A DNA stretch of 64,000 bases from positions 1-64,000 of the IMG/VR virus record IMGVR_UViG_3300024182_000001, one strand, 5' to 3'. Position 1 is the first letter of the stretch. Every line of letters begins with the position of its first letter. The notes beneath the pieces were generated by a model. It did no database searches. It was not told the DNA's origin and saw only the letters and a program-made list of their open reading frames with translations. Made by a program: the position numbers and the translations under genes. Of this stretch, positions 12,291 to 51,818 are shown one piece after another. This stretch comes from a virus.

Positions 12291-12292
12291 AC

Positions 12293-35336: not shown

Positions 35337-35894
35337 ATGGGCGTGTTACGCAATGCGAAGTGGGAAGCGTTCGCACAAGCCTTATCAAAAGGACAACCCG
35401 TCTTATCATCGTATGTGCTTGTAGGATATAGAGAAAATGCGCCTAACGCCACGCGCCTAGCAAAAAATGATAAGATTCAGACAAGAATTGACGAATTGAT
35501 AGCAAGAAAAGACGAATCATTGATAAGAGCGGAAACGCGGGCGATTAGTGCCGCAGCCGTTGACAAGAAATGGGTATTGCAACGTCTTGTTTATGAAGCG
35601 GAAAAAGGTGAGCAATCATCAGCCAGATGCAAGGCCTTAGAGCTAGTCGGCAAGGAAATGGGGATGTTTATCCAGCGCCAAGAGATAGGCACGCCAGGAT
35701 CATTCGAGACGCTAGACACCACGCAAGCCATCCTTGACGCCGTGCGCCAACAGCTCGGAGACGAAGCATACAACGCAATGAGGGCGCTAGTCGATAAAAA
35801 GACCAACGCCCCCAAGGTAATAGAGCATCGCGAAAACGAATCAGAGCAGGACTCGGAGATCATCGACGCTGAGCCGATCCGGGGCTTCGACTAG
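35337..35894 (+). CDS. terS: terminase small subunit (Terminase_2-like)
   Basis: The N-terminus KWEAFAQAL...VGYRENAPNATRLAKNDKIQTRIDEL matches the TerS family pattern KQExFxQEY...AGYS..A...A..L...N..IQ.RI.EL, as does a later R.KALELVGKEMGMF segment. Confidence 0.65.
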   Translation: MGVLRNAKWEAFAQALSKGQPVLSSYVLVGYRENAPNATRLAKNDKIQTRIDELIARKDESLIRAETRAISAAAVDKKWVLQRLVYEAEKGEQSSARCKALELVGKEMGMFIQRQEIGTPGSFETLDTTQAILDAVRQQLGDEAYNAMRALVDKKTNAPKVIEHRENESEQDSEIIDAEPIRGFD

Positions 35895-36056
35895 CTCACG
35901 CGCCAGCAACTCGATAGTCTGCATCCAATCCGCTGCGCTCTCGCCCCGCATGATTAGTGCGTCGACTTGGTAGCGCTTGCTAGGCGTTGCCGGCTTCGCC
36001 GTCACGTCTTGGACAACTGCATTCCCCTTGCGATCAAACACCAATTGCTTTGCCAT
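35841..36056 (-). CDS. hypothetical protein overlapping the terS 3' end on the opposite strand
   Basis: ORF only; the convergent 54-nt overlap makes it doubtful. Confidence 0.2.
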   Translation of the reverse strand: MAKQLVFDRKGNAVVQDVTAKPATPSKRYQVDALIMRGESAADWMQTIELLARELVEAPDRLSVDDLRVLL

Positions 36057-36060
36057 GGTC

Positions 36061-36243
36061 TTAGCCTCCCATGACTTGGCAAGTGTTCATTGCGGCTGCG
36101 ATTTCTTCCGCGAGTTCAGCGCCGTCGGTATGATCACTGTGTGGGTCTACTATCGCAACCACTGCGTTGCTGTGCGCGTCAACGATGTGATACTCCGCAT
36201 CCCCTGAGTCGTGCGGGATGTGAGCTTTAACGAAATAGCGCAT
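36061..36243 (-). CDS. small hypothetical His/Asp-rich protein (60 aa)
   Basis: The palindrome at 36313 lies 70 nt upstream. Confidence 0.35.
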   Translation of the reverse strand: MRYFVKAHIPHDSGDAEYHIVDAHSNAVVAIVDPHSDHTDGAELAEEIAAAMNTCQVMGG

Positions 36244-36312
36244 TGACTAATCTCCCCTAAGCCGCACCATCGCGGCAAGCACACGATAGCAGTGCAACCA
36301 TTCCACTTCCTA

Positions 36313-36328
36313 ATCACAATGTCGTGAT
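36313..36328. promoter_or_regulatory. palindromic operator-like site ATCACAATGTCGTGAT
   Basis: Upstream of the minus-strand gene that starts at 36243. Confidence 0.45.
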
Positions 36329-36648
36329 AATGCAAACCTCTCAACGTCCGTTGATAGGATCGTAATGGTGTAAGGTATTGCCGCAAGTGTTGCGCGCCAG
36401 CAACAGTATAGACAAAGGCAAGGCTTAGGGAGGAGGATAGGAGCAGGGCAGGGCCAAAGGCTGGCGGCTCAGGGCCACGCGCCGATCGCCAACTGGGTCC
36501 GGTGCATACCCGAGCCCCCCGCTAATCGAGCCGCGCTGCGATGACGGTTCCCCTCCGCCCCTCACGCAAAGCTCTGAAAAATATAAAAATTTTCTATAAA
36601 CTTTTAGTCCACTTCTATACCAAGTTGCCAAACGCGAGACACTTCGCC

Positions 36649-37500
36649 CTAAGCCCCAAGGGTCCCATCCACCCGCTTTTGCGCCATCTCCGCGTACGTC
36701 GGGTTCAACTCCACTAAGATACAATGTCGCCCCAACTTCTTCGCCACCACCCCGACGGTCCCACTCCCTCCGAATGGATCCAGAACAACTCCGCCCACAG
36801 GACTTCCCGCCAGCATGCACGGTTCGACCAGCTTCGTCGGGAACGTGGCGAAGTGCGCTTCGCGAAACGGTTCCGGCGCTATACTCCAGACGCTTCGCTT
36901 GTTGCGTGTCTCTCTTGCGCCGATCTCCGTGAACCCGACTTTCGTACGCATCTTCTCGTCGCCGGCCTCGTAGGCGGTCTTACCTTTATGGGTCTTATTG
37001 CCTGGCGGCCGGTTCGTGGCTTCTTCCTTGATCGCATCTGCATCAAACCAATATTTCTCACTCTTGCTCAGCAGGAACAGATACTCATGCGCCTTGGTAC
37101 ATCGATCTCTCACGCTTTCCGGCATCGGGTTCGGCTTTGACCAGATGATGTCTTGCCGCAAGTACCAGCCGTCGGCCTGCAGCGCGAACGCGAGGCGCCA
37201 GGGAATACCTAGCAAGTCCTTAGGCTTGCAGCCTTGTTCCGCGCCGTTCGCGTAACTGTCCCCCACGTTCAGCCACAACGTCCCATCCGGCCGCAGCACT
37301 CTTCGCACTTCCCGAAACACTTCAACCAATTTACCCAGGTATTCATCGAATGTTTTTTCCAGCCCGATCTGACCGTCGGCGCCGTAGTTTCGCAAACCAA
37401 AATAGGGAGGGGACGTGATGGTACAGTTGATGCAGTCGGAAGCCATCTGCTTTAGCCAATGGAGTGCGTCGCCTGTGCAAATCCGAAGTTCTGGTTTCAT
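36649..37500 (-). CDS. DNA methyltransferase (N4-C/N6-A, beta class)
   Basis: Motif IV in TSPPYF and motif I in VVLDPFGGSGTVGVVA. Confidence 0.75.
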   Translation of the reverse strand: MKPELRICTGDALHWLKQMASDCINCTITSPPYFGLRNYGADGQIGLEKTFDEYLGKLVEVFREVRRVLRPDGTLWLNVGDSYANGAEQGCKPKDLLGIPWRLAFALQADGWYLRQDIIWSKPNPMPESVRDRCTKAHEYLFLLSKSEKYWFDADAIKEEATNRPPGNKTHKGKTAYEAGDEKMRTKVGFTEIGARETRNKRSVWSIAPEPFREAHFATFPTKLVEPCMLAGSPVGGVVLDPFGGSGTVGVVAKKLGRHCILVELNPTYAEMAQKRVDGTLGA

Positions 37501-37753
37501 AGTCTGAATATATACCTTCTACCCCAAAAGAAAAAGGGCCCCCTAAACCAAGACCCCTACCGCGCGCCAGGCGCTAAACCCACAGCCTCTTTAAGTTCTT
37601 CTAAACTCTCAGCTCCAAGCGGTTTCCACCACTTGCAGTCTCGGCCCTTCCAACCTGTTCGTAAACACCCGTCCCATGCGCCCTACGCGTTTTTGCCCCA
37701 ATAACAGTCTGCTTCGCGCTCGCAGCTTCCGTAGTTGTCGAGCAGATATTCTC

Positions 37754-37936
37754 TCACCTCAACCCCTTCAAAGTCTTCGCCAAATTCGCCTCTTTCCGAA
37801 CCTTCGGGCTCCCGCTCGACGCCGCCTTCTCGATTTTCTTCTCGGGGATCTTCTGCCCCTGTGGAACCCCCAGGCTCCGGTGCAAGCCACCCTTATTCTT
37901 AGTGGCTCCAGCGATCCAGTTCTTGGCCATCTCCAC
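37754..37936 (-). CDS. small basic hypothetical protein (60 aa)
   Basis: GTG start; sequence MEMAKNWIAGATKNKGGLHRSLGVPQGQKIP... Confidence 0.3.
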   Translation of the reverse strand: MEMAKNWIAGATKNKGGLHRSLGVPQGQKIPEKKIEKAASSGSPKVRKEANLAKTLKGLR

Positions 37937-37987
37937 ACTCCTTATAAGTAGCCTGGGAACAAGCGACGACGGGCTCTTACTACCATT

Positions 37988-38041
37988 GCTCTACCAGCTG
38001 AGCTACCGGCTTTCACCGGGTTGGACTCGAACCAACGACCC
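37988..38041 (-). other. tRNA-gene fragments: a T-arm plus acceptor 3' half next to a D-arm 5' fragment, not a functional tRNA
   Basis: On the minus strand, GGTCGTTGGTTCGAGTCCAACCCGGTGA (T-stem/loop plus 3' acceptor) is followed by GGTAGCTCAGCTGGTAGAGC (D-arm). No matching acceptor 5' strand or anticodon arm is present. Confidence 0.4.
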
Positions 38042-38097
38042 ACGGTTCCATTGCGAAGTATCCGTTGTCTACGCCACAGGCTATTTTCAGACTACCA

Positions 38098-38376
38098 CTA
38101 AACACTTACCCACGCAATCCGTATCGAATCGATTTCTCGAAATGCGACGGATGACCATCGGCCGAATTCGACGCGTTCAACCCTCTGCCGGCCGTAGGCA
38201 TCCCAACCTGTTACGAGATACGCAGCTGTTTCTGTTCTCGCTGGATCCGCTAAATTCCATGCCAAGTACAGCGGTGGATCCAACGCTCTGACCTTCATCA
38301 AACTCTCAACCCGCACAATAGCCGGAGCCGCGACTAAACCCGCCAGCCCGGTGATCAGCCCTCGTCTTGAGATCAT
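38098..38376 (-). CDS. hypothetical protein with a twin-arginine-like N-terminus (MISRRGLITGLAGLVAAPAI)
   Basis: ORF between the tRNA fragment and the recombinase gene. Confidence 0.3.
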   Translation of the reverse strand: MISRRGLITGLAGLVAAPAIVRVESLMKVRALDPPLYLAWNLADPARTETAAYLVTGWDAYGRQRVERVEFGRWSSVAFREIDSIRIAWVSV

Positions 38377-38384
38377 AGATCACC

Positions 38385-38642
38385 TCAGTTAGTCATCTGC
38401 GGATTTTCTTCTCGTCGCCGCTTGATCAAAGCATCTAGCTGCTCGATAAGCCATATCGATGTCTCGATCGTCATCTTGCAGTGTGCGATCAGGTGGTTCG
38501 GTTCATAGTAAACCCGGAGGTGGACCGCCTGACACGTAGGATCGTCGCAGGAGGTTACGGCGATGGTCTGGCCCATCACGACTTCCGGCGGTTCAAAATC
38601 TACTGACATTGCAAAACCCTGCCTACTTGCGAGCTGCTCCAT
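38385..38642 (-). CDS. hypothetical protein
   Basis: ORF; the start is uncertain. Confidence 0.3.
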   Translation of the reverse strand: MEQLASRQGFAMSVDFEPPEVVMGQTIAVTSCDDPTCQAVHLRVYYEPNHLIAHCKMTIETSIWLIEQLDALIKRRREENPQMTN

Positions 38643-39277: not shown

Positions 39278-39335
39278 CTTCCATCTCCCTCTCTAGTCCA
39301 TAACAAGACTATCAACCCTACCCCTTCTTGTCAAG

Positions 39336-39365
39336 AAAAACCGCCCGGTGTTTCCACAGGGCGGT
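39336..39365 (-). terminator. rho-independent terminator (minus strand)
   Basis: On the minus strand, a CCGCCC-N12-GGGCGG hairpin followed by TTTTT, between the Ig-like gene and the recombinase gene. Confidence 0.5.
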
Positions 39366-39430
39366 AAGTTTCTAGGGAGGAAGTTGCCCTTCTCAGAGCC
39401 CCTCCCTTATGGCACGTCCAGACCTGGACC

Positions 39431-39748
39431 TCAAGCGTTAAGCGCTGCCGTCAAGTCTGCTACCGGGTTCGGCGCTGCGAGCGTAGCCGCTACTGTCACG
39501 GTTGCGGTATTACTTGCTGCCGACACGTGCCCGGTCGTATCCGTCACCACGACCGTGAAGGTATGGGTTCCGACCGTCAGAGCGTCGGTGGTGAAAGTCT
39601 GAACCCCACCCAGGACGCTGCCGATGGCACGCGATGGATCCGGAGCTGCGGTATCGAATATGTCGACGCGGGCGATATCGGATGGGGCAAGCGCCGATCC
39701 GTCGGTACGGCTTGTCGGGTCAGTCCACTTCAGGGTCGCAGTTGTCAT
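39431..39748 (-). CDS. Ig-like/FN3-like domain protein (105 aa)
   Basis: AGGAGA RBS. T/V/D-rich beta-strand pattern TDALTVGTHTFTVVVTDTTGHV. It is the last gene of the island operon. Confidence 0.45.
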   Translation of the reverse strand: MTTATLKWTDPTSRTDGSALAPSDIARVDIFDTAAPDPSRAIGSVLGGVQTFTTDALTVGTHTFTVVVTDTTGHVSAASNTATVTVAATLAAPNPVADLTAALNA

Positions 39749-39910
39749 ACAGTGTCTCCTGTGGAGTTGGGCGCGCAGATGCCGCGCAGGCCGCGGTGGC
39801 GCACGACGGTGGTGCTTGTGGTGATGGTGTCGCATCGCTTTTCATATAGGGTGGGATTGTGACGGCGCTATTGCTTACCGCGTGTCATGAACCACATCTC
39901 GCAAAGAGCC

Positions 39911-39924: not shown

Positions 39925-39959
39925 AGTTCCAGCGACCATAAGAAGAAATTGTGATTCGG

Positions 39960-40139
39960 TCATGGCACCCTCATGAATGGATAAGCTTCCTGGCAATGTT
40001 CGGCGCAGTAGGCCGCGCGTGCTCCTTGCCTCTGCAGCGCCGGCTTCCCGCAGAACAGATGCCGGTACTCGTCTTCACCCGTCGGGTACCTGCATCCGCT
40101 CTCGGGTACCTCCCAGATGGGAATTCCTTCATTTTCCAT
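39960..40139 (-). CDS. small Cys/His-containing protein (59 aa, zinc-binding candidate)
   Basis: My own translation gives MENEGIPIWEVPESGCRYPTGEDEYRHLFCGKPALQRQGARAAYCAEHCQEAYPFMRVP. It overlaps the PseI stop by 11 nt. Confidence 0.3.
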   Translation of the reverse strand: MENEGIPIWEVPESGCRYPTGEDEYRHLFCGKPALQRQGARAAYCAEHCQEAYPFMRVP

Positions 40140-41208
40140 CAGCGTTCTCCATCGGGCGAAGTACGCGCTCGAACATTTCCAGCTTTAATGGCTCTCCACG
40201 CTCGATATCACGCGTGGCTTTATTCCCTACAATCTTGTCGATCGTATCCGGCGGCCAGCCGTGCCCCGGCCGGATGCTTCTCACATTCTCGTAGCTGAAT
40301 ACTTCCCCTTTCTTGATATCCTGCACGACGAACAGCGAGCGTCGATACGCTTTATGCACGCTCTCGGTCGTCACTTCCTCACTCTCTTGCATCGCCGACC
40401 ACGTCTCGTAGACCGCCTTGACCATCCGGGCGAACGCCGCCGGCTGCAAACTAAAAGCCTCATCCTCGCTATTCACACCCTCCAGTCTGAAATGCTTCTC
40501 GACCATGCACGCCCCAAGCGCTGTCGCAGCAATTGGAACCTCAAGCCCGAGCGTATGGTCTGACACGCCGTAGAGCGGGGAGTATCTCCGCATCTTGCCG
40601 AGGTTATAATCGCTTGTCTTGGCGGGGTATCCGGAGACGCAGTGGAGCACCACAGGTCCTGTCCCTACATCGCCCAGCCAACTTCCATCCGCGTACACGT
40701 TCGCCACGGCCCCGAGCGCTTTCAGTATGTCGTGCTGGTTCGCCATCCCGGTGGATAAAATAACGGGCTTCCCGGTTCGCGCCGCGTACCTGATCAGTGG
40801 GATATCCGTGATCTCGAACGAGGCAATCTTATATGCCGGGCACTTCAGCTTTTCCAGCATGTCGACGCTCGACGGGTCAAAAACGGAGGCAAACCACTCG
40901 ATCCCTATTGCCTTGGCATGCTCGGCGATCCAGGGGAACCACTCGAACGGCGTCTCACACTTCTTATACAGGTCCCACAGCCGCTTCCCCTTCCAGGGCC
41001 CATCCTTGATAAAAAACTCGTCCCGATCGCAATTCAGCGTGATCGTCTCGGCCGTATATGCCTGCAATTTACAAGCATCGGCTCCGCTCCGCTTGGCGGC
41101 TTCCATCGTTTCCAGGCACCGGTCCAAGCTCCCCATATGGTTCGCGCCTATCTCACAAACGATATAGGGGGCTTCCCCGCCTCCGATTTCTCTACTTCCG
41201 ATTTTCAC
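40129..41208 (-). CDS. pseI: pseudaminic/N-acetylneuraminic acid synthase family protein (NeuB/PseI-like, with SAF domain)
   Basis: N-terminus IGGGEAPYIVCEIGANHMGSLDRCLETMEAAKRSGADACKLQ. The family identification is confident; the exact sugar product is inferred. Confidence 0.8.
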   Translation of the reverse strand: MKIGSREIGGGEAPYIVCEIGANHMGSLDRCLETMEAAKRSGADACKLQAYTAETITLNCDRDEFFIKDGPWKGKRLWDLYKKCETPFEWFPWIAEHAKAIGIEWFASVFDPSSVDMLEKLKCPAYKIASFEITDIPLIRYAARTGKPVILSTGMANQHDILKALGAVANVYADGSWLGDVGTGPVVLHCVSGYPAKTSDYNLGKMRRYSPLYGVSDHTLGLEVPIAATALGACMVEKHFRLEGVNSEDEAFSLQPAAFARMVKAVYETWSAMQESEEVTTESVHKAYRRSLFVVQDIKKGEVFSYENVRSIRPGHGWPPDTIDKIVGNKATRDIERGEPLKLEMFERVLRPMENADGK

Positions 41209-41446
41209 TCAGTACCTCCCTTGGATCATACGTCCCGTTTGTATCTGGTATCCAGCCGGGGCACGTCATGAGCCCGTCGACATACCACACGGCTCCTTCC
41301 TTCTTATGGTCCCGGAAGCACTTGCCTGTGGTCTCGTCTTCTCCCGAGAACGTTTTGAACGAATAGTATCCACACATCCAGCATCGGTGTGGATCATCCT
41401 TGGTCGTAAGCTTCGCATCCGGCGGTGCGGCGTCGAAGATGCTCAT
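41192..41446 (-). CDS. small Cys-containing hypothetical protein (84 aa)
   Basis: ATGA-coupled to the PseC stop. Start chosen at MSIFDAAPPD. Confidence 0.35.
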   Translation of the reverse strand: MSIFDAAPPDAKLTTKDDPHRCWMCGYYSFKTFSGEDETTGKCFRDHKKEGAVWYVDGLMTCPGWIPDTNGTYDPREVLSENRK

Positions 41447-42585
41447 AGCTTCATCTCCTCCGCTACTTTCTTGAAAGCGTTTCCGATCTGCTTGATCTGT
41501 TCTCGCGTTGGCGACCACGCGCAATTCTCGAACAAAAAGAGCCTGCGGTCGTGAAGGTCTTCTGCCACCGGGCACTCTCTTGCATACTTCGAGAACGCCG
41601 GCAGCCGGTACAGCGGCGCCACATATCCCTGGCTCACCGGCACGCCTTCCATGAACAGCCGGCTGGTGAACTCGGCCCGCGCTCCTGACGTTTCGTTCTT
41701 CATGAGAAACGGGATGGCATAATAAACATGCTTGCATCCTTCCCGCACCGCGGGCCCTCGTATTCCAGGAATATCCCCGATCGCCTCGATGATCGCTTCT
41801 GCTTGCTCGATCCTTCCGCCAATCAGCTCGTCCGCCCTTTGGAGCTGCGAGAGCGCAATGGCCGCGGATACCTCGGTAAGTCGGAGGTTGAGGCCAATAG
41901 CCTTTCCCGCCATCTCCCCATGGTTAACGAATCTCCGTATTTTTTCCGCAAGCTCGTCGTTATCCGTGACGCATATACCTCCCTCACCACATTGCAAATG
42001 CTTATGTACGTTGAGGCTGAAAACTCCGATGTCTCCGAATGTTCCGGCATATTCACCTCGCTCCATTGCAAAGGGGGATTGGGAATTGTCTTCGATCACC
42101 GTGATATAGTTGGGTAGTTGTATCATTAAATCCTGTACTGCGGATGGATGCCCGAACAAGTTTGTTATTATAAGAGTTTGGCACCTATCTTCGTTGAAGT
42201 CGATATCGGCTGCGTGCTCAGGATTCATACAGAAGGTTGCATCTTCCACGTCAATAAAATGGGGACGGGATCCGGTGAACATTGGGGCTGCGACAGTAGC
42301 CGACATGGTGTAAGGTGAGACGGCAAACCTATTGAAGGTGGAAAGCCCGACCGCAAACGCCGCCGCCAGCAGCCCCGACGTTGCCGAATTGCATGCAACG
42401 GCGTGTTTGACGTCAAATCGCGCAGCCCACTTTTCCTCCAATTCGCAGACGTAATATCCATTCGATCTCAGCTTGCCGCCGATAAAGCCTGACAGGGTAT
42501 GACCACGCAGCATATTGTACGCGTTATATTTATCGGCGTGACTAACAGCTTCGTACGGCGCAATAGCCCCTTTCACTTCCGGCAT
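41443..42585 (-). CDS. pseC: DegT/DnrJ/EryC1-family PLP aminotransferase (PseC-like sugar aminotransferase)
   Basis: 380 aa of the DegT family, co-operonic with PseB- and PseI-like genes. Confidence 0.8.
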   Translation of the reverse strand: MPEVKGAIAPYEAVSHADKYNAYNMLRGHTLSGFIGGKLRSNGYYVCELEEKWAARFDVKHAVACNSATSGLLAAAFAVGLSTFNRFAVSPYTMSATVAAPMFTGSRPHFIDVEDATFCMNPEHAADIDFNEDRCQTLIITNLFGHPSAVQDLMIQLPNYITVIEDNSQSPFAMERGEYAGTFGDIGVFSLNVHKHLQCGEGGICVTDNDELAEKIRRFVNHGEMAGKAIGLNLRLTEVSAAIALSQLQRADELIGGRIEQAEAIIEAIGDIPGIRGPAVREGCKHVYYAIPFLMKNETSGARAEFTSRLFMEGVPVSQGYVAPLYRLPAFSKYARECPVAEDLHDRRLFLFENCAWSPTREQIKQIGNAFKKVAEEMKL

Positions 42586-43463: not shown

Positions 43464-45481
43464 GCTCTCACCATCGGTTCAACGCTTCCCCCTTCCAACC
43501 TCTTTTCCACGTCCCCCTTCCTTACCGCTTCCTCGATCACGCCCAGGGTGTGGTCGTACGATTTCAGCACGCGCTTGATCTCGCTCATTCCATGCGCCGC
43601 GCAAATGTTGTGTGAAGCGATGATCAGCGTCCCGGTCGCGATCATTTCCTTCCGGAATAGCGCGGCGATGGAACCGGCGGCAGGCATGCTTGTGTGATCC
43701 TTGAACTTCAGTCGAATGAGTGGCTCTGCACCATACAGCGAGATGTATTCAGTGAGTTCGGCGTCTTCTATTTTCAGGGCTACTTGTGCGCCAAGGTCTG
43801 CGCCTTTGAACCATAATCCGTCGATCACATTATCTCGCTCCAGCTTCTTGATCGTCGCAATCCCGGCCGCCAGGCTTAAAGCCTCTCCGAAGAACGTTCC
43901 GGAATAGAAGATATTATCTGGCGGCTCCATCCGCTTCATAATATCCCTTCGGCCGACGATTGCCGACAGCGGCATCCCGTTGGCCATCGCCTTGCCGAAG
44001 CACGCGAGATCGGGTGTCACGCCATAGAGCTTTTGCGCTCCTCCTAGGTCGAAGCGGAAGCCGGTTATGACTTCGTCGAATATAAGGACGGTGCCGGTCT
44101 CGTCGCAGTATTCGCGCAACGATTTCAGATAAGCTGGATTGCTTTCTGGTTCGACGATAACAGCGGCAAACCGTTCGATACCTGCGAGCCAGGGGTTCCA
44201 TCCAAAAGCTTCGCGCCTGCTGAATACCTGTATTCCTCCTGGGATGCCGATAGTTCGCTCGCAACTCCAGTCTGCCCACCCGTGGTACCCTCCGCATATA
44301 AGTACCCGGTTCCTGCCGGTATAAGCCCGCGCCAACCGCACCGCGCACGTGGTTGCATCCGTCCCGGTCTTGCCGAAGCGCACCATCTCGGCGCAAGGGA
44401 TCAGTCTTACCAGAAGTTCGGCTAATTCAGCTTCGAGTTCGGTGGCAAGGGAAAATGAGATGCCTCGGGAGAGTTGATCTCGGATTGCTCCATCGACGTT
44501 AGGATCACAGTAGCCCAGGATGTTTGGGAGCAGGCCGGACACAAGATCAGTGTATGAGTTACCGTTGACATCCCAGACTGTTCCTCCTTGCCCGTGGGTG
44601 AGGAAGAGTGGGGAGGGTTGGGGGAATTGGAGTTTTGACTTGCTGAATGTTTGTGTGCCCAGCGGAATGACAGCTTCAGCGCTTCCCAAAAGACTTTGGG
44701 AGCGATCATAGCTGCGGCGATATACGGGCTCCTCCACCAACGCATCGTAATACCTCTGATTTATTTCGTGATCAGTATTCAGTTTTCGCAGCGCCGGGCT
44801 TTTGTCCAGAATATCGAGGATAGCCAGTTGTGACGGCGGCCCTTTTTCCCACGGCCAGTTGGTGGCGATTGCCTTGCAGAATTCGTAATCTGCCGCAGTG
44901 TCGAGAACGTATCTTTCTTTATGTTGGTTTGAAATAGGGTTGATAATGGTTCTGGCGGAAAACCGCGACTGGTTGGCCTGTATCCACGTCGTTACGCATT
45001 CCCGATCGATGGGGCGGATGGCTTCTTTGTCGGCGGCACGTAGCGCGTCGATCGTAACCGCCTCACAATCTTGCCCGTCAGCGAAGGTGCGCGGGCTGAC
45101 ATTGCTAGCGTAATCGCAGCCAGTATCTTTTTGGAGCCTGACGACTTCCCCGATAATATTTGGATCAATTAGCGGACAGTCACAGGTGACCCTTATTGCA
45201 ACACTGGCGTTTGCCGCTTCGGCAGCACCGAGAAAGCGAGAGAGCACATCGGTCTCCGAGCCGCGGAAGACATTGACAGCGTGACTGTGGCACCAATCTT
45301 CAACAGTGTCGTCTGCAGGCAGCGTAGACGTAGCGATCCATACTTCATCCACTCCGATTGCAGCTTTCGCGGCGCGCGTAACCCATGCTATGACGGGCTG
45401 GCCGCCAAGATCCATCATCACTTTCCCCCTGAGCCGCGTAGACCCCATTCGGGCAATGCCGATAAAAACTGTTTTCACCAT
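43460..45481 (-). CDS. bifunctional protein: N-terminal cytidylyltransferase (CMP-nonulosonate synthetase/SpsF-like) fused to a class-III (GSA-aminomutase-like) aminotransferase
   Basis: N-terminus VFIGIARMGSTRLRGKVM. C-terminal DEVITGFR, FGKAMANGMP (Lys) and SGTFFGEALS motifs are typical of PLP class-III aminotransferases. Confidence 0.7.
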   Translation of the reverse strand: MVKTVFIGIARMGSTRLRGKVMMDLGGQPVIAWVTRAAKAAIGVDEVWIATSTLPADDTVEDWCHSHAVNVFRGSETDVLSRFLGAAEAANASVAIRVTCDCPLIDPNIIGEVVRLQKDTGCDYASNVSPRTFADGQDCEAVTIDALRAADKEAIRPIDRECVTTWIQANQSRFSARTIINPISNQHKERYVLDTAADYEFCKAIATNWPWEKGPPSQLAILDILDKSPALRKLNTDHEINQRYYDALVEEPVYRRSYDRSQSLLGSAEAVIPLGTQTFSKSKLQFPQPSPLFLTHGQGGTVWDVNGNSYTDLVSGLLPNILGYCDPNVDGAIRDQLSRGISFSLATELEAELAELLVRLIPCAEMVRFGKTGTDATTCAVRLARAYTGRNRVLICGGYHGWADWSCERTIGIPGGIQVFSRREAFGWNPWLAGIERFAAVIVEPESNPAYLKSLREYCDETGTVLIFDEVITGFRFDLGGAQKLYGVTPDLACFGKAMANGMPLSAIVGRRDIMKRMEPPDNIFYSGTFFGEALSLAAGIATIKKLERDNVIDGLWFKGADLGAQVALKIEDAELTEYISLYGAEPLIRLKFKDHTSMPAAGSIAALFRKEMIATGTLIIASHNICAAHGMSEIKRVLKSYDHTLGVIEEAVRKGDVEKRLEGGSVEPMVRA

Positions 45482-45990
45482 CGTGCAAATTCTCCATGAT
45501 ATTTTTTAGCGGCTTTTTGGTATGCTGTGGCTGCGTCGCTGATGTTGTTAAAATAGCCTAAAAATTTGCGCTGTTTATTGGTTGTTATTTGTGCCAGCCA
45601 TTTTTTCATATCCGGATGCCAGCATACGCCTTTAACGCCGCTTGTGTTTCGGATCGATGGTTTTTTATTATATGTATTTTGAGGCCGCGTGGCATCTCGC
45701 AGATTGGAAATTCGGTTGTCACTTCTATTTAAATTTCTATGATCTAGATCATTGATAGGCCAGCGACCACGTTCGTAGAACCAAGCTACTCTAGCAGCTT
45801 GAAAAAGCGTACCATCAACTCTTATCTGTATGTATCCGTCAGCTTTTAGGGAGCCGGCTACGTCACCTGTTTTACTGTTTCCGCGTGATATAAGGCGCGT
45901 AAATACGCCGGTGGCACGATCATAGTGAAGTACTTCTAAAAGCCGCGCGTGGAGTAGTTGCTTTTCTTTTTTCCTGTTTATTGCGGTCAT
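45475..45990 (-). CDS. HNH-AP2 homing endonuclease
   Basis: HNH_3 motifs in ARVAWFYERGRWP and DLDHRNLNRSDNRISNLR. AP2 DNA-binding domain in GVKGVCWHPDMKKWLAQITTNKQRKFLGYF. ATGA-coupled at both ends within the operon. Confidence 0.75.
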   Translation of the reverse strand: MTAINRKKEKQLLHARLLEVLHYDRATGVFTRLISRGNSKTGDVAGSLKADGYIQIRVDGTLFQAARVAWFYERGRWPINDLDHRNLNRSDNRISNLRDATRPQNTYNKKPSIRNTSGVKGVCWHPDMKKWLAQITTNKQRKFLGYFNNISDAATAYQKAAKKYHGEFARW

Positions 45991-46868
45991 CCCAACCCCA
46001 CCTTTTCCTTAACTTGCCGGCAAATCTCCAGCACTCGAAGCCCATCTTCACCCGTGGCCCATTGAACTGGCGGTTCTGCCGCGGTTCTAGTTGGGGCTAT
46101 GCCACCTATGAACGCCTGCATCTCATCGATATAGTCGTCATTCCACTCCCCACCGAACTGCTGCGTCATCTTGCCGAACGACACTTGCCGTCCGAGCATA
46201 TCCAGCCCGATGTTCTTCTCGGTACCGACGATCCAGCCTTCCCGGATTTCGTTCCGGGTCACATAATCCAGGTGGATGGTACTTCGGGCGCCGCTGTCGT
46301 GTTCAAGCACAATGTCGGCAATGTCATCCTTGCCGTCCACGACATGCACGGACGCCGCCACCACCTTCGCTGGCCCCAGCAGATAAAGCGCCAAGTCGAT
46401 CTCGTGCGACCAGTTCAGCACGACTCCATCACGCAGATAATCCGGCTTGTCGTTGTATTGCCCGCAGATGAAGGTAGCCCACAGCGGCGTGCCGATATGC
46501 CCGGCGTCGATCCAATTCTTGGCCGCTTTGATGCAGGGATGGAACCTGAGAAAATAGCCGAGAAATAGTTCTTTAAGCAGGTCTTCTTGCCAGAACTGTG
46601 CGATCTGGGCGCAAGTTCCTAGCGGCTTTTCCATAAAGATTTTGGCTCTTGCGGACATGGTAGCCCAGTCGTCGTAGTGACGGTTGGTGGGAGTGCATAT
46701 GAGAATAGCGTCGCTTTCAATTACTTCATCTCGATCCCAGAGTACGCCGCTGAGCGCCAACCTTTTTTTCATATCAGTGTCATACCCAATAACCTGGTGC
46801 CCCATCATTTTAAGATTACGCGCATGTCGCATCCCGATCGAGCCCAGCCCAAGAATCCCTATCTTCAT
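45987..46868 (-). CDS. Gfo/Idh/MocA-family NAD(P)-dependent oxidoreductase
   Basis: MKIGILGLGSIGMRHA Rossmann motif. The start was moved to M17, which is ATGA-coupled. Confidence 0.65.
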   Translation of the reverse strand: MKIGILGLGSIGMRHARNLKMMGHQVIGYDTDMKKRLALSGVLWDRDEVIESDAILICTPTNRHYDDWATMSARAKIFMEKPLGTCAQIAQFWQEDLLKELFLGYFLRFHPCIKAAKNWIDAGHIGTPLWATFICGQYNDKPDYLRDGVVLNWSHEIDLALYLLGPAKVVAASVHVVDGKDDIADIVLEHDSGARSTIHLDYVTRNEIREGWIVGTEKNIGLDMLGRQVSFGKMTQQFGGEWNDDYIDEMQAFIGGIAPTRTAAEPPVQWATGEDGLRVLEICRQVKEKVGLG

Positions 46869-47482
46869 GTTCTCACCGGTATTGCGTTTGTTCGTTTTTG
46901 CAGGATGGTTATGCACTCATCTTCCACATATAGGCGCGACCTATCCTGTACGTGATACCAAGGGTGTGCCGTCCACAATTCCGAGAAATCGAGATGGTAC
47001 GCGAGTAAACCTTCTTTCGGACTGTATGGAACGGCGTATGCAGGCTGGAGCGTGTTGAAATCATGAATAACCAGCCACCCTCCATCCGCCAGCAGCCTGT
47101 CCGCTTCCGCCACGATCCGGAACCATTCACGTGGCTCCGTAACATACAAGCAGAACCCGAAGATGATCATGTCGAACGTGCCGCCAAGCCATGGCTCGCT
47201 GTATCCGAACTTGCCCCAGCAGACATCATCCAGCCCGCTCGTAATAGCGACTGCCACGGCATCCTGGCTGGTATCAATCCCCGACACCCGGCAGCCGTAT
47301 TTATCTCGCATCTTGCGCAGTCGCCAGCCGTTGGAACATCCGACTTCGAGCACCCGCTTCGGGCGGATCAGCGGCAATAGCCCGAGTAGATCGCCGACCG
47401 GATCGCGCTTGCCGAGCTTCTCCTTGTTGCGATGGTACCAGGCATCGCCCTCGCCATTTAGGAATGTGTCGCTCTGGCTCAT
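46865..47482 (-). CDS. class I SAM-dependent methyltransferase
   Basis: Motif I in VLEVGCSNG, with an acidic residue at the end of beta-2 (GID). Confidence 0.65.
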   Translation of the reverse strand: MSQSDTFLNGEGDAWYHRNKEKLGKRDPVGDLLGLLPLIRPKRVLEVGCSNGWRLRKMRDKYGCRVSGIDTSQDAVAVAITSGLDDVCWGKFGYSEPWLGGTFDMIIFGFCLYVTEPREWFRIVAEADRLLADGGWLVIHDFNTLQPAYAVPYSPKEGLLAYHLDFSELWTAHPWYHVQDRSRLYVEDECITILQKRTNAIPVRT

Positions 47483-48240
47483 TTGTTTCCTAGTACGTAG
47501 AGGAAGTTGGGGGAGTAGAATTCTGGGCTAAATCCGAGTGATGGCAGTTGCGAGGCGACTTTATTGATCAGGTGCCCATAAGCCGGCTCTTTATCATCAG
47601 CCTTGCAGAGAGCGGCGTACACGGCGCGCGAGATTATATAGTAGAGGTTGCCGATATTCTCGCGACCGATGATATCGAAATGCGTGCTGGCGAACGGCTC
47701 GAATTCTCCTATCCACATATAGCGGTTATGCCAGCGTTCTTCGATCTTATGCAGGTCGAATTGAGCGCGTAGGTAGTTTAGGCTATGCAAGCCGTCTTTG
47801 AAGTTTTCAACGAGTATGATCGTTCCGCCCGGCTTCAGGCACTTCTTCATTTCCAGCAGCGCCACCTGCTGTTCTTCCCAACTCGCGAGATTGATCAGGC
47901 AACGTCCGGAGATGATGATATCTTGGTTATGCGCGTGCTTCGATAGTTCCCGCACGTCGCCGACAATAAAAGCGATATCGGAGTACGTTTTTCGCGCTTC
48001 ATGAATCATCTTCTCTGAGTAATCAACTCCGACGAAATCCGAGTCACAGGCTTCCCAGAACTTCTGGGTCGAATACCCGTTCCCACACCCGACGTCCAAT
48101 ATCTTTCTTCCTGGCTCCAGGTGCTCGATAATCTTCCTGATTTCCAGGTCCCGATAGAAATGATCCGGAGCGGTGGCGAGATCGGACGCGCCATGTTCTT
48201 GCGCTTGGGCGTCCCAGAATTCTTTTACTTTATCATTCAT
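47479..48240 (-). CDS. class I SAM-dependent methyltransferase
   Basis: Motif I in ILDVGCGNG. Start chosen at MNDKVKEF, which is ATGA-coupled. Confidence 0.65.
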   Translation of the reverse strand: MNDKVKEFWDAQAQEHGASDLATAPDHFYRDLEIRKIIEHLEPGRKILDVGCGNGYSTQKFWEACDSDFVGVDYSEKMIHEARKTYSDIAFIVGDVRELSKHAHNQDIIISGRCLINLASWEEQQVALLEMKKCLKPGGTIILVENFKDGLHSLNYLRAQFDLHKIEERWHNRYMWIGEFEPFASTHFDIIGRENIGNLYYIISRAVYAALCKADDKEPAYGHLINKVASQLPSLGFSPEFYSPNFLYVLGNK

Positions 48241-48416
48241 TCTGGAAGCTCCACTTTGATCCAATGGGTAAAACCAGCTTTTTCTGGTTCTAGATAATGA
48301 GTAGCGCTGCTGGTAAACCACGCCACCGGATGTGGAGCATCTTTATTCCATACAAGTATGATGGATCCATCACGTGGAGCCGCGCAGTATTCCAGATTTT
48401 CCCATTCCCACTTCAT
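48237..48416 (-). CDS. small hypothetical protein (59 aa)
   Basis: My own translation gives MKWEWENLEYCAAPRDGSIILVWNKDAPHPVAWFTSSATHYLEPEKAGFTHWIKVELPE. ATGA-coupled on both sides. Confidence 0.3.
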   Translation of the reverse strand: MKWEWENLEYCAAPRDGSIILVWNKDAPHPVAWFTSSATHYLEPEKAGFTHWIKVELPE

Positions 48417-48928
48417 TTAAACCTCCCATAAAGCAAAGCCCCAACCGGGGCGTGATCGATGATGAATTTATTCTTCCGTTCCCCCTCAAGTACGAACCTC
48501 GATTTCTCAAGGATACGCTTCATCGGGATATTAGCTGCCGCGCACCCGGCTTCCAGTTTCCGTATCTGGCCGCCATCTCGTTGATCAAGTAGCCAGTTGG
48601 TAGCAGCCAGCCAAGCCTCGAAGCCATAGCCCTGCCCCCACACGTTCATGAACCCGATCATGATCCCGACGTCGGCGACGTTGTTCGGATGATCCACTTC
48701 TGCCGAGATATTGCCGATATGCTCGCCGCTCTTGACGGTGTATATGCCCCACAGGTATCCACAAAATCCGCTTACGTAGCGGTTCTGGGTACTGAGCGTG
48801 TGTTCCTTATGGCGTTGCTCCGAGAACTTTGTGACTTCCTTATCCCGGAGCCAGTCTACTTGACGTTGGGTGGCTTTGGTTAGGGGGCGTAGCGTTAGCC
48901 TTTGGGTAGAGATGGTGGGGACGATCAT
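48413..48928 (-). CDS. GNAT N-acetyltransferase (RimL/PseH-like)
   Basis: GNAT core GIMIGFMNVWGQGYGFEA. In the context of PseB, PseC and PseI it suggests a PseH-like role. Confidence 0.6.
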   Translation of the reverse strand: MIVPTISTQRLTLRPLTKATQRQVDWLRDKEVTKFSEQRHKEHTLSTQNRYVSGFCGYLWGIYTVKSGEHIGNISAEVDHPNNVADVGIMIGFMNVWGQGYGFEAWLAATNWLLDQRDGGQIRKLEAGCAAANIPMKRILEKSRFVLEGERKNKFIIDHAPVGALLYGRFK

Positions 48929-49413
48929 CAGAACGACGCGACGTTGACCACAACCATCTTGAGATCGCGGATTTTAGCCGGCTCCAGATACTCAGTGCGT
49001 TCCTTCACCTTCTTGTCGACGATCTTGACGCGCTTGGCGTTGTGGGCTTCCAGGATCGTCTTGATATCGATCTCGAAGAATAGTTCCTGGTCGGTCGCAT
49101 CGGTAAGTTTCTGCTCGCCGCTATAGAGCAGCGCTATATCGAGCGGCACATTTTCGTTCGGGTCGGCGATGAACACTTGCACGAGGCGGCGAGTGGTTAC
49201 GGCCATAAGATTTTCCTTCAATGGTGGTGGAATAGGGTGGGTAGCGTGTCTGTCTAGCGCATTTTTATATTGTTGAGCGAGGTTGCCATGATTTTGTGCG
49301 AGAGGGGAACCTACAATTTGCCCAGCTTGTGCTTGCCCAAAGCAAGCCAAGTTCATAGGAGTGCTGGCGTAGGTACTTGACGCGATGTGCGGGATATCAC
49401 CGGTTGCCATCAT
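48928..49413 (-). CDS. hypothetical protein (161 aa)
   Basis: GAGGCGAGGAAA RBS with ATGA coupling. An internal start at 49206 (also with a strong RBS) is an alternative. Confidence 0.4.
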   Translation of the reverse strand: MMATGDIPHIASSTYASTPMNLACFGQAQAGQIVGSPLAQNHGNLAQQYKNALDRHATHPIPPPLKENLMAVTTRRLVQVFIADPNENVPLDIALLYSGEQKLTDATDQELFFEIDIKTILEAHNAKRVKIVDKKVKERTEYLEPAKIRDLKMVVVNVASF

Positions 49414-49571
49414 TTCCTCGCCTTCTCAAGCGCATGGTCCGTCAGCTTTAACAGGCTCTCGATCGCCAGCCGTATGGTGGCGGCCGAAGCGTCGAAGTCG
49501 CCGATGATTTTGAGCCTGTCGCGTTCCAGCAGGAGCGTATTTCTAAGTTCAACGATTTCGTCGCGGGTCAT
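49410..49571 (-). CDS. small hypothetical protein (53 aa)
   Basis: My own translation gives MTRDEIVELRNTLLLERDRLKIIGDFDASAATIRLAIESLLKLTDHALEKARK. ATGA-coupled on both sides. Confidence 0.3.
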   Translation of the reverse strand: MTRDEIVELRNTLLLERDRLKIIGDFDASAATIRLAIESLLKLTDHALEKARK

Positions 49572-49906
49572 GGTTTACTTTCTGGGGTCGAATCGCTAGT
49601 TTTTGGTTCGTCGTCTTCGACAGCTATTTCAAGCGCATCGACGATAACTTTAGCAATACGATCGGATGCGCCAAGAAGAAATTTTTCCATCTGGATGGCA
49701 GTTTCAAAAACATGATCGAGATGTAGTGTTGTTATATTTCTGCCCTCCAGCTTATATTGCTGGTACAAGGCGCCATCATGGATGGTGTTCATATTGTGGT
49801 ATTGAATCGCCATGTTTAGAGCTAGAGCGGCGATACCATGCGCTGGCGCGATCGGCGCGTCTTTGAGGGCTTCCAGTTCTTTAAAAGGACGTTCTTCAGG
49901 GTTCAT
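49568..49906 (-). CDS. hypothetical protein (112 aa), first gene of the island operon
   Basis: AAGGAG RBS before MNPEERPF. The Arg-rich 42-aa extension in the ORF track is probably untranslated. Confidence 0.4.
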   Translation of the reverse strand: MNPEERPFKELEALKDAPIAPAHGIAALALNMAIQYHNMNTIHDGALYQQYKLEGRNITTLHLDHVFETAIQMEKFLLGASDRIAKVIVDALEIAVEDDEPKTSDSTPESKP

Positions 49907-50150
49907 GTTGAACTCCTTGCCGAAATTTCTTGCCGCCAATCGACGTGGATACCTTCTCGCTTCTCGTCCACGATGCGCCTTACGACCTCCGAAACCGACA
50001 CGCTGTATTCGCGCGCCCGCTTTTCCAGCCATTGCATCTGGGATTTTGTAAAAACGATGCCGCGTTGTATGCCTGTCACCCGAATTCTCCCGTCAATGTT
50101 AGGTTAGTCTATATACGGACTAGTCATCTGTCAAGCGGTTTGTTCCAAAA

Positions 50151-51818
50151 ATGAACGTTCCCCTTACTCCAAAGCAGCTCGCCCAGTTCGCTCAAGCCTT
50201 AGAGCGCCAGAAAATCGTCGATGAAGCCGAAAAACTGGAGGGATCACTCTACGAATTCGTCAAAGCAGCGTGGCCATTCTTCGATCCAGCCGATTTTCAG
50301 GGAAATTGGCACCTGGAAGATGCCTGCAGGCACTTGGAAGCCGTTGCCAGGGGGCATATCAACCGGCTTTTGATCAATGTTCCGCCACGGACGGCAAAAT
50401 CCAGCCTGGCATCAGTCTGTTTTATTCCTTGGATATGGGCGCAACGTGAAGAAGGCCCCCTCTTGGGGCCGAAAGTGTCGGCTTTTTACGCTTCCTACGC
50501 TGAATCGCTTGCCCTGGAGCATTCTCTTAAGTGCCGACGCCTCATCGAATCCAAGTGGTACCAGCGCCGATGGGGGAATCGCTTCAAATTGGTCTCTGAT
50601 CGCAATAAAATCGGGCATTTCGAGAATGATAAGGGCGGCTATCGCATGGCGTCATCCGTTGGCGCGCGGGCGACGGGCTGGGGCGCCTCACTTATCCTTG
50701 CCGATGACCCTCACCTTGTTCAGGAAGCCGAATCCGAGGTGGTGCGGGAAAGTGTGATCAAGTGGTGGTCGGAATCGATGCCCTCGCGCCTCAATGACCG
50801 GCGCACCGGGGCCATGATCGTCATCATGCAGCGTGTCCATGCTGGTGACGTAGCCGGCTACGTGCTCTCCGGCGAGATGGGCTACGTCCATTATTGCGTC
50901 CCCATGTGCTATATGCCTTGCCGGCACGTGAATGCGTGGGTCGGCGACCAGGTCCAAACGTTTTTGGGCGATGACGTCGACAAAGTGAAGGAAGAAGACA
51001 TTTTCTGGGTCGATCAACGTACCGAAGACGGCCAATTGCTGTGGCCCGAGCGCTTTCCGGCCAAGGACGTGGCCAAATTAGAGACGGAATTGGGGCCTTA
51101 CGGCTTTGCCGGGCAGTACCAGCAGAATCCAGCCCCCCGCGGCGGCGGGATCATTCGGGAGGAATGGTGGAAGGAGTACGACGACGAGTCTGGCGCTGAA
51201 TTCGGCGCCAAGCCGGGGCAATATCCGGCCTGCGAGTACATTCTGGCATCTCTCGATACGGCTTACACTGAGAAAGAGGAAAATGACCCGTCAGCACTTT
51301 CTATTTGGGGTGTTTTCCGGGATAAAATGTCCAACCCGCAGATCATTCTCATGTTCTGCTGGCAAGAGCGTATGGTGATCCACGAGTTGGTCTCGCGGGT
51401 GGGGGCGGACTGTAAACGCTTCAAGGTTGACCGGTTGATCATTGAAGACAAGGCGGCTGGGCACTCGGTTTCCCAGGAAATAGCACGTCTGTTTGGCAAT
51501 TTCGATTTTGGCATCGAACTCGTCAACCCGCGCACTGGCTTTATCGCTTCTCCGGATAAAGTGGCTCGTGTGCAGACGGTGGTGCACTTGTTCGCGGAAG
51601 GAATGATCTGGGCGCCGGATAAGAAGTGGGCCGATGAGATGATCAACCAGTGTTCGCTATTTCCGCGCGCTACTCATGATGACCTGGTCGACACTCTTTC
51701 CCAAGGGCTTATCTATCTCCGCCGTGCCGGCTGGGCGGTAAAGAAGGAGGAACGCACTCTTGAGATCGAGGATGAGCTGCGTTATCGCCCGAAATTTCAG
51801 CCGCTTTATCCAGCGTAA
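50151..51818 (+). CDS. terL: terminase large subunit
   Basis: ATPase Walker A-like VPPRTAKSS and Walker B LILADDPH. The C-terminal region is nuclease-like and rich in acidic residues. Confidence 0.8.
   Translation: MNVPLTPKQLAQFAQALERQKIVDEAEKLEGSLYEFVKAAWPFFDPADFQGNWHLEDACRHLEAVARGHINRLLINVPPRTAKSSLASVCFIPWIWAQREEGPLLGPKVSAFYASYAESLALEHSLKCRRLIESKWYQRRWGNRFKLVSDRNKIGHFENDKGGYRMASSVGARATGWGASLILADDPHLVQEAESEVVRESVIKWWSESMPSRLNDRRTGAMIVIMQRVHAGDVAGYVLSGEMGYVHYCVPMCYMPCRHVNAWVGDQVQTFLGDDVDKVKEEDIFWVDQRTEDGQLLWPERFPAKDVAKLETELGPYGFAGQYQQNPAPRGGGIIREEWWKEYDDESGAEFGAKPGQYPACEYILASLDTAYTEKEENDPSALSIWGVFRDKMSNPQIILMFCWQERMVIHELVSRVGADCKRFKVDRLIIEDKAAGHSVSQEIARLFGNFDFGIELVNPRTGFIASPDKVARVQTVVHLFAEGMIWAPDKKWADEMINQCSLFPRATHDDLVDTLSQGLIYLRRAGWAVKKEERTLEIEDELRYRPKFQPLYPA

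Follow-up and report, generated by a model that had tools for sequence, protein, structure and literature searches.

Pseudaminic, legionaminic and other nonulosonic acids are sugars of the bacterial surface that occur on flagella, capsules and lipopolysaccharide (LPS), and many phages use such structures as receptors. Virus-encoded sugar pathways are already known: chloroviruses and mimiviruses have nucleotide-sugar pathways, glycosyltransferase genes lie beside the capsid genes of mycobacteriophages, virion glycans have been demonstrated in these viruses, and the haloarchaeal HRPV-1 carries a legionaminic acid. Temperate phages carry seroconversion modules such as gtrABC and oac, sets of one to three genes that act in lysogens on undecaprenyl-linked glycans and modify the host O-antigen. 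Here we describe the genes lying between those for the small (TerS) and large (TerL) terminase subunits in IMG/VR virus record IMGVR_UViG_3300024182_000001, of which positions 1 to 64,000, a tailed-phage-like sequence with a GC content of about 55%, were analyzed and are referred to below as the window. Most of this block is an operon predicted to make a pseudaminic acid-type (Pse) sugar, and the new aspect is the presence of a nonulosonic acid operon throughout a clade of phages; no description of phage-encoded pseudaminic or nonulosonic acid synthesis was found in a full-text search of a limited literature collection.

The operon resembles the bacterial pathways to CMP-Pse (Pse in Campylobacter and Helicobacter, flm in Caulobacter) in its PseI, PseB-like, DegT, GNAT and CTP_transf_3 components. 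It differs from them in being phage-encoded, in the absence of PseG and of any Maf/FlmG-type or other transferase that could be found, in the fusion of the cytidylyltransferase to a class-III aminotransferase, and in PseB and PseC scores that fall under the model cut-offs; the additional GFO oxidoreductase and one or two methyltransferases imply a tailored Pse derivative. In common with other virus-encoded glycan machinery, the phage has its own sugar genes next to structural genes and these are conserved in the lineage, whereas here they form a nonulosonic acid pathway with no recognizable transferase in a tailed phage of 71.5 kb. A logic shared with gtrABC and oac may be the alteration of a host receptor glycan, but in this case there are 8–10 biosynthetic genes, no usual integrase, and no integrated copies were found in 185,579 reference genomes. 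When compared with phage morons and hot-spots, the 4 kb next to terS are alike, whereas the 9.5-kb sugar operon is not patchy and has a genome-like composition.

The two terminase genes that delimit the block are as follows.

35337..35894, plus strand: TerS (Pam5-like / PHROG 51 type), end gene of the rightward early block
50151..51818, plus strand: TerL (PHROG 38, E 6.7e-90; Terminase_6C, PF17289), which opens the rightward morphogenesis block and is followed by an SU10-type portal gene

The original prediction had taken the open reading frame (ORF) at 35337 for a TerS homologue, and this is borne out. The 185-residue product matches PHROG 51 (E 9e-10) and PHROG 11494 (E 1e-8), both annotated as terminase small subunit, and a profile made from it and nine homologues matches the small terminase of cyanophage Pam5 (PDB 21di, E 2e-30) as well as SF6 TerS (3zqp, E 1.3e-5). 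With tblastn, annotated terS genes of cyanophages and of Sinorhizobium, Mesorhizobium, Brevundimonas and Ruegeria phages were matched. The Pfam model Terminase_2 (PF03592) gives a sub-threshold 13 bits against a cut-off of 26.1 on the window protein, and is touched by 8 of 10 TerS homologues with a best E of 5.8e-5. Judged by these profile matches, the ORF is predicted to be a genuine TerS of the PHROG 51 / Pam5-like type. The gap between the genes, which had been put at 14 kb of minus-strand genes, spans 35895–50150 (14,256 nt), and all credible genes within it are indeed on the minus strand. Thus the window terS neither adjoins terL nor forms a contiguous, co-oriented pair with it, which is a usual though not obligatory feature of TerS. 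The sign of the GC skew is inverted near 36 kb and restored near 49–50 kb, as is expected for a switch of coding strand at both borders of the gap.

The part of the gap proximal to TerL, from 40.1 to 49.6 kb, is a collinear operon whose family-level gene identities predict a CMP-pseudaminic-acid-type product; these genes and the short ORFs that precede them are listed here.

40129..41208, minus strand: pseudaminic acid synthase PseI, NeuB family plus SAF domain (PF03102, E 1.6e-68)
41192..41446, minus strand: 84-aa ORF between pseI and the aminotransferase gene, kept in locus L006 (66% identity)
41443..42585, minus strand: DegT-family sugar aminotransferase, PseC/LegC-like (PF01041, E 3.7e-57)
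42573..43463, minus strand: UDP-GlcNAc 4,6-dehydratase, PseB-like (PF02719, E 1.1e-71)
43460..45481, minus strand: 673-aa fusion of an N-terminal SpsF/PseF-type cytidylyltransferase and a C-terminal class-III aminotransferase
45475..45990, minus strand: HNH-AP2 homing endonuclease inserted in the sugar operon (PF13392, PF00847)
45987..46916, minus strand: GFO/IDH/MocA-family sugar oxidoreductase (PF22725, PF01408), kept in all loci that reach this position
46865..47482, minus strand: SAM-dependent methyltransferase 1 (PF13489, PF13649), kept in most of the clade
47479..48321, minus strand: SAM-dependent methyltransferase 2 (PF13649, E 2.4e-19), in some relatives only
48413..48928, minus strand: GNAT acetyltransferase with a putative PseH-like role (PF13302, E 2.9e-17), conserved in the clade
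48928..49413, minus strand: 161-aa protein (PHROG 17203, unknown function, E 7e-7)
49410..49571, minus strand: 53-aa helical protein with no Pfam match
49568-49906, minus strand: 112-aa ORF with AAGGAG in front, read from the sequence
49903-50079, minus strand: 58-aa ORF, first of the minus operon, read from the sequence

PseI scores 384.2 bits with the equivalog model TIGR03586, above its cut-off of 340.25, and 253 bits with the N-acetylneuraminate synthase model NeuB_NnaB, below the cut-off of 399.65. The DegT-family enzyme scores 137.5 bits as PseC and 133.4 bits as LegC, each far under the respective equivalog cut-off, and the best model for the dehydratase is PseB (TIGR03589) with 290 bits against a cut-off of 407.75. 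The fusion protein, a hallmark of the clade, contains CTP_transf_3 (PF02348, E 3.7e-24) and Aminotran_3 (PF00202, E 1.2e-43) domains and matches NF004856 (E 9e-91); its C-terminal part resembles glutamate-1-semialdehyde aminomutase, and the PseF equivalog is not among the 25 NCBIfam matches listed of 72. No NCBIfam equivalog was matched by the GNAT protein. Pfam and NCBIfam thus confirm the sugar operon named in the original prediction, as they do the methyltransferase and the serine recombinase discussed below.

Relatives were picked solely by TerL, and 31 loci were collected from metagenomes and IMG/VR. TerL relatives at 60–82% identity form more than 100 clusters, many of them on contigs of 70–77 kb; loci with a TerL 62–82% identical to that of the window were counted as in-clade, and 28 of these were usable in having at least 1 kb upstream of terL. 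All 28 have genes of the opposite-strand block directly 5′ of terL, with the order and place of the sugar operon constant, and in all 15 loci with at least 9 kb the GNAT, GFO, fusion and PseC genes occur in the same order. The nearest TerL relative also has the most similar sugar genes: in L010 TerL is 82% and the sugar genes are 59–75% identical, and in L013 the corresponding values are 62% and 33–59%. When 5.8 billion proteins were searched for homologues of the fusion enzyme, none of the 120 top-ranking sequences lay on a contig longer than 90 kb, and many came from contigs of 66–77 kb. No sugar-operon genes were found in about 55 loci with a TerL of 44% identity or less, and no operon at any locus with a TerL of 50% identity or less. 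On the other side of the block, relatives of the window TerS at 69% and 49% identity (L006–L008) share the window layout, with terS on the plus strand followed by a minus-strand block of recombinase, PseI, PseC and PseB; in L035 the distance from TerS to TerL is spanned in 9.2 kb.

We consider it probable that the block is for the most part an old and conserved sugar operon, an ancient module that defines the clade, and not a recent mobile island. In this group of phages, which have an SU10-type portal and genomes of about 70–77 kb, a divergent operon and not terS holds the slot 5′ of terL. A single acquisition of the operon at the root of the group would have been followed by vertical inheritance, its composition being genome-like by now; vertical inheritance is suggested by the synteny, by the pairing of the closest TerL with the closest sugar genes, and by the restriction of the nearest homologues to phages. 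The only recognizable terS ends the rightward early block, and a cargo region of fast turnover, in which the window has a DNA methylase, an orphan Y RNA, a serine recombinase and several small ORFs, lies between terS and the operon.

The original prediction had read the whole block as a moron or accessory island inserted into the packaging module, possibly by a mobile element to which the recombinase and a tRNA remnant would point, and had suggested a search for shifts of GC and codon usage near 36.0 and 50.1 kb and for repeats at both borders. In its full form this reading takes the island to be a recent acquisition between adjacent terS and terL genes, with the recombinase as the integrase and the tRNA remnant as the attachment scar. 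The composition of the operon is that of the core genome. Codon usage of the block correlates with that of core genes with r = 0.92, compared to 0.94 between two halves of the core, and the tetranucleotide correlation of 0.88–0.90 equals that of core against core. Individual sugar genes have codon correlations of 0.71–0.85, inside the core range of 0.58–0.92. The exceptions are the HNH-AP2 gene, which occurs sporadically among the relatives and deviates most clearly of all block genes in composition (GC 0.43 and GC3 0.37 as against about 0.55 and 0.6–0.7), and two genes nearer to terS, the recombinase and the ORF at 39431–39835, whose less core-like codon usage (0.37–0.41; 0.37 for the ORF) speaks for an island. 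A search for direct and inverted repeats returned only short imperfect matches of 15–18 nt such as are found all over the region, and none that marks a border.

The 4 kb proximal to TerS, at 35.9–40.1 kb, contain the following features.

35841..36243, minus strand: two small ORFs (71 aa and 60 aa) with which the minus block ends distally; the 71-aa ORF overlaps the 3′ end of terS
36292..36306, minus strand: copy of the near-palindromic motif GTGGAAnnnTTACAC
36649..37500, minus strand: N6/N4 DNA methyltransferase (PF01555, E 1.9e-52)
37960..38068, minus strand: YrlA-like Y RNA of 109 nt (Rfam RF02553, E 4e-8, 43.6 bits, below the gathering score of 69)
38098..38642, minus strand: two small ORFs of 92 aa and 74–85 aa, with weak homologues in L007 and L008
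38600..39277, minus strand: small serine recombinase of resolvase/invertase type (Resolvase, PF00239, E 1.1e-26)
39326..39420, minus strand: possible mmgR/suhB-like small RNA (sRNA), a weak match (RF00519, 22.8 bits, E 0.59)
39431..39835, minus strand: ORF of 105–134 aa named Ig-like (Big_13, 19.8 bits against a cut-off of 27, E 0.0011)

This part really is a variable accessory hot-spot with fast turnover, and to this extent the description of the block as an accessory island stands. In the relatives an IS1595 element, a TROVE/Ro60 gene, a tRNA and GcrA genes replace the methylase of the window, which has no homologue in the other compared loci by tblastn, and the two small ORFs next to terS have neither homologues in the compared loci nor a Pfam match. 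Such differences, one relative having an IS1595 element in this very region, favor a recent island, as does the presence of a recombinase together with a tRNA-like sequence. The IS1595-family element of L006 (5068–6987) is bounded by 24-nt perfect terminal inverted repeats and is absent from the window. A complete tRNA (anticodon CCA, 62 bits) is present in L007 (11452–11524) and L008 (4056–4128), at a position which corresponds approximately to the site of the methylase and the Y RNA in the window.

The recombinase also matches PHROG 125, DNA invertase (E 1.7e-32), and is kept at 66–69% identity in L006, L007 and L008 only; these three and the window's own contig are the loci, four in all, with a TerS of the window's family. 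It lies 2.7 kb inside the block and not at a border, and no convincing or conserved inverted repeats for an invertible segment were found next to it in the window, L006 or L007. A small recombinase of this type, internal and limited to one TerS family, does not support its reading as the sign of a mobile element that brought in the block. Neither integrated copies nor an in-clade TerL were found in 185,579 species-representative bacterial genomes, which argues against a common lysogenic state and against the role of an integrase for the recombinase. A single-sequence TerL scan gave only distant loci in IMG/VR and nothing in GTDB genomes, and an alignment-based rescan was needed.

The tRNA gene fragments of the original prediction are explained differently. 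No tRNA gene was found in the window by ARAGORN, and the tRNA-like arms that are present belong to the YrlA-like Y RNA, 2.1 kb inside the block, in which GGUUCGAGUCC and GUAGCUCAG..GGUAGAGC align with high posterior probability to the tRNA-like module of T arm and D arm. YrlA RNAs are known to imitate tRNA in its T and D arms (Chen et al. 2014, PMC4201824), and modules of Ro60 (TROVE) and Y RNA have been described in bacteria and phages (PMC4201824), including a Ro60 of a Thermus phage (PMC12135203). The window RNA shares the T-arm and D-arm mimicry with these modules; it differs from them in its score below the gathering threshold and in being an orphan, the window having no Ro60/TROVE homologue (best tblastn E 0.89). 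TROVE genes are present in the relatives L006, L036 and L013, and in L006 a YrlA match (9930–10045) lies beside the TROVE gene (8361–9722). The window element is thus a YrlA-type Y RNA, of a kind that accompanies a Ro60 gene in L006, and not the remnant of a tRNA. The Ig-like assignment is weak: Big_13 is below threshold, and the ORF has no PHROG match and no homologue in the relatives.

For the operon, then, the constant order and place in all 28 in-clade loci, the core-like composition and the absence of border repeats largely refute a recent island, and for the block as a whole we regard this origin as very improbable. Another argument in its favor comes from more distant phages, in which terS lies beside terL. 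In each of the five outgroups that were viewed gene by gene, terL is abutted by a small gene on the same strand, and in three of them this gene is recognized as terS. The outgroups are exemplified by the following.

L097, TerL 50% identical: 155-aa ORF overlapping the terL start, PHROG 309 terS (E 4e-9)
P0124 contig, TerL 47% identical: unannotated 132-aa same-strand ORF abutting terL
MW202675, TerL 41.5% identical: annotated terS abutting terL
Roseobacter phage CRP-901, TerL 39% identical: annotated terS abutting terL

Since these outgroups have no block at this place, the split arrangement is the derived state, as had been proposed. The comparison of synteny that had been suggested as a check gives terS beside terL in the outgroups, but the opposite-strand sugar operon at that place in the in-clade relatives. 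In addition, the in-clade terS is not orthologous to the adjacent terS of the outgroups. The TerS of L097 is homologous to that of CRP-901 and not to the window TerS, and no homologues of the MW202675, CRP-901 or L097 TerS were found in the window; the window TerS family (PHROG 51, Pam5-like) differs from the adjacent family of the outgroups and so may never have adjoined terL. Insertion between adjacent terS and terL is only one possible history, and loss of an old terS with recruitment of another elsewhere is equally compatible with the data. In L097 a UDP-GlcNAc 2-epimerase-family gene and a Gly_transf_sug glycosyltransferase gene (1–1718) were observed about 9 kb 5′ of terL, with no Pse operon, and glycan genes of other kinds thus occur in neighboring lineages.

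The separation of terS and terL could also be thought to result from a chimeric assembly or a mis-called gene, the real terS being a small ORF beside terL. Plus-strand ORFs of 74–89 aa are found just 5′ of terL in the window, and similar ORFs of 90–190 aa recur in relatives. These were rejected as a second terS, as the products are Arg/Ser/Cys-rich, lie in antisense frames and are not conserved, and the sole conserved plus-strand ORF at this place is an unrelated 91–94-aa gene in L037–L039. The genome was assembled twice independently (ENA, 71,657 nt, and Logan, 71,546 nt) with a different permutation, and the agreement between the two indicates that the layout is not an assembly artefact and that the genome is about 71.5 kb long. 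As this junction recurs in more than 30 contigs of independent origin, and the outgroup types of terS have no counterpart in the window, an artefact is a practically negligible explanation. The source is a complete phage genome from a large uncultured phage group. A megablast search of 33–53 kb against 50,697 phage records gave no match, the closest cultured TerL being 41.5% identical, and NeuB homologues occur in 3 of these 50,697 GenBank phage records, one of them labelled Moritella viscosa. Close relatives in culture are thus lacking, and the pathway is nearly missing from the sequenced cultured phages. Some features hint at Alphaproteobacteria as hosts, namely GcrA genes and mmgR-like sRNA in relatives, mmgR being an alphaproteobacterial sRNA, and the kinship of the TerS with those of rhizobial and roseobacter phages. 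In the slot equivalent to that of the weak match in the window, after the recombinase gene, RF00519 reaches 42.6 bits, the gathering score being 41, in L007 (13169–13245) and L008 (5773–5849).

The pathway encoded by the operon would start with the action of the PseB-like 4,6-dehydratase on UDP-GlcNAc, followed by the PseC-like aminotransferase and N-acetylation by the GNAT enzyme to give a 2,4-diacetamido-hexose. PseI would then condense this product with phosphoenolpyruvate (PEP), and the cytidylyltransferase domain of the fusion protein would activate the resulting acid with CMP. The fused class-III aminotransferase, the GFO oxidoreductase and one or two SAM-dependent methyltransferases may add amino and/or methyl decoration. 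The families to which the genes belong, the equivalog status of PseI, and the synteny, conservation and composition of the operon are observed directly; the exact sugar, the timing of its expression and its acceptor are deduced from them. No PseG candidate was found in the block or the rest of the 71.5-kb genome by ORF scans and precomputed Pfam matches. Similarly, no glycosyltransferase (Maf, FlmG or other) was found by Pfam or PHROGs in the scanned ORFs of the window, which took in structural, tail, replication and small ORFs for both searches, nor in the precomputed Pfam matches for the remaining 7.6 kb.

Three fates of the sugar may be considered. In the first, the phage feeds a modified CMP-Pse to Pse-transferases of the host and so remodels flagellin, capsule or LPS in the course of infection; we give this not quite an even chance, and rank it over glycosylation of the virion because neither a glycosyltransferase nor PseG is recognizable.

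In the second, which we hold to be possible but distinctly less likely, the phage family attaches its own tailored Pse-type acid to the virion (capsid, tail or fiber) or another phage-specified target by means of a phage transferase of an unrecognized family, for shielding, adhesion or stability. The strict conservation of the operon down to 62% TerL identity suggests a role that is independent of the host. Everywhere the operon borders directly on the morphogenesis module, and in L013 it is contiguous and co-oriented with the portal gene. The tailoring genes differ from member to member as might be expected of a surface antigen (the variable genes being methyltransferase 2, ATP-grasp, PIG-L and an extra GNAT), many conserved ORFs of the structural region are without assigned function, and glycosylated virions have precedents in mycobacteriophages, chloroviruses, mimiviruses and HRPV-1. 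Against this, a new transferase family has to be assumed for want of a recognizable glycosyltransferase in 71.5 kb, and the absence of PseG implies reliance on a host that already makes Pse.

In the third, the operon does not serve surface glycans at all, and either diverts UDP-GlcNAc and PEP so as to cripple the host envelope or provides a sugar for phage DNA or for anti-defence inside the cell. Several functions for DNA modification and of anti-restriction type are suggested by the N6_N4 methylase together with a PAPS-reductase-like ORF (22810–23679, minus strand) and a Dam-like ORF (27772–28248, minus strand) in the replication block, a 72-aa ORF inside the sugar operon of L012 (4535–4753) gives a weak hairpin match to Acb2/Tad1 (anti-CBASS/anti-Thoeris sponge), and the failure to find a transferase for protein or glycan acceptors would fit as well. 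On the other hand, neither a DNA glycosyltransferase nor genes that would provide hydroxymethyl-pyrimidine or other base precursors were detected, tailoring by several enzymes with CMP activation poorly fits a simple metabolic drain, and we know of no nonulosonic acid on DNA. We consider a function of this kind quite unlikely.

Several observations weigh against an ancient Pse operon positioned between the terminase genes. A homologue of the window TerS is not detectable in most members of the clade, only 10 clusters having been found, and no more than five loci show the block to lie between the two terminase genes. The gene order of L013 is rearranged: over positions 1–13128 it has the portal gene (minus), the sugar operon (minus), TerL (plus) and variable genes (minus), with terL alone on its strand, and the divergent junction of sugar operon and terL is nonetheless kept. 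Vertical inheritance is deduced from synteny and similarity. Only PseI passes an equivalog threshold, with PseB, PseC and PseH assigned at family level and PseG missing, and the product could be another nonulosonic acid derived from a 2,4-diamino-hexose, or the pathway could be incomplete. The choice between the host surface and the virion as acceptor rests on absence of evidence, and the promoter matches near the borders are no commoner than in shuffled sequence. These matches and an associated hairpin are used only as positional hints, the counts of promoter and terminator matches being equal to those of shuffled sequence.

35267-35293, plus strand: terminator-like hairpin just 5′ of terS, 11-bp stem with 7 GC pairs (consensus only)
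35278-35307, plus strand: sigma-70-like promoter match TTGACT-18-TATGAT with extended TG, overlapping the hairpin (consensus only)
50134-50106, minus strand: sigma-70-like match TTGACA-17-TAGACT in the divergent intergenic region 50080..50150 (consensus only)

The motif GTGGAAnnnTTACAC occurs 14 times where 2.9 matches are expected, and none of 100 shuffles reached 14. Copies are found at 33699, 33828, 34139 and 34946 on the plus strand and at 36292 and 17935 on the minus strand. The motif precedes the rightward small genes at 33.7–35.0 kb and clusters before small genes on both sides of terS, and an ATCACG..GTGAT hairpin lies 5′ of three copies; it is probably the operator of a phage regulator.

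Among the small genes at the terL end of the operon, the 53-aa ORF is the most widely conserved of the block, being found by tblastn in 27 of the 28 usable in-clade loci and always close to terL. Of the relatives, 10 have a gene for the 161-aa protein, located between those for GNAT and TerL. The 58-aa and 112-aa ORFs have no homologues among the compared loci and no Pfam match; a call of a 154-aa ORF at 49568–50032 is probably over-extended, and a resemblance of the 58-aa product to ribbon-helix-helix proteins that was seen by eye is not supported by Pfam and is not claimed. Single-sequence AlphaFold models of the 161-aa ORF (pLDDT 33) and of a 372-aa ORF at 17346–18464 (pLDDT 40) were unusable. 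The homing endonuclease genes of the genome total four, including the HNH-AP2 gene of the sugar operon. A NUMOD4-HNH gene (59062–59892, minus strand) and an HNH-EndoVII gene (60940–61872, plus strand) flank the capsid gene (60030–60872), and a GIY-YIG gene (L095 16814–17710) lies between two SU10_adaptor ORFs, so that the adaptor gene may be split. Inteins are indicated in terL of the group, where the TerL relatives P0016, P0020, P0045 and P0053 run to 908–968 aa and Hint/intein domains (PF07591, PF14890) are present in P0016 and P0045.

For the annotation of phage genomes, these results mean that a gap between terS and terL is by itself no sign of recent insertion, and that tRNA-like fragments in phages can be Y RNAs. 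The group offers a defined and testable system, together with compact, diverged enzymes for modified pseudaminic acids. If the sugar were attached to the virion or to another phage-specified target, the strict divergent junction of operon and terL would reflect co-regulation with particle assembly, and the group would then be the first lineage of phages to encode a sialic-acid-like coat of its own. A fixed pathway of 8–10 genes beside the packaging gene in an apparently widespread group suggests that the sugar is central to infection or persistence, where it may act by rewriting the surface of the host or by coating the particle.

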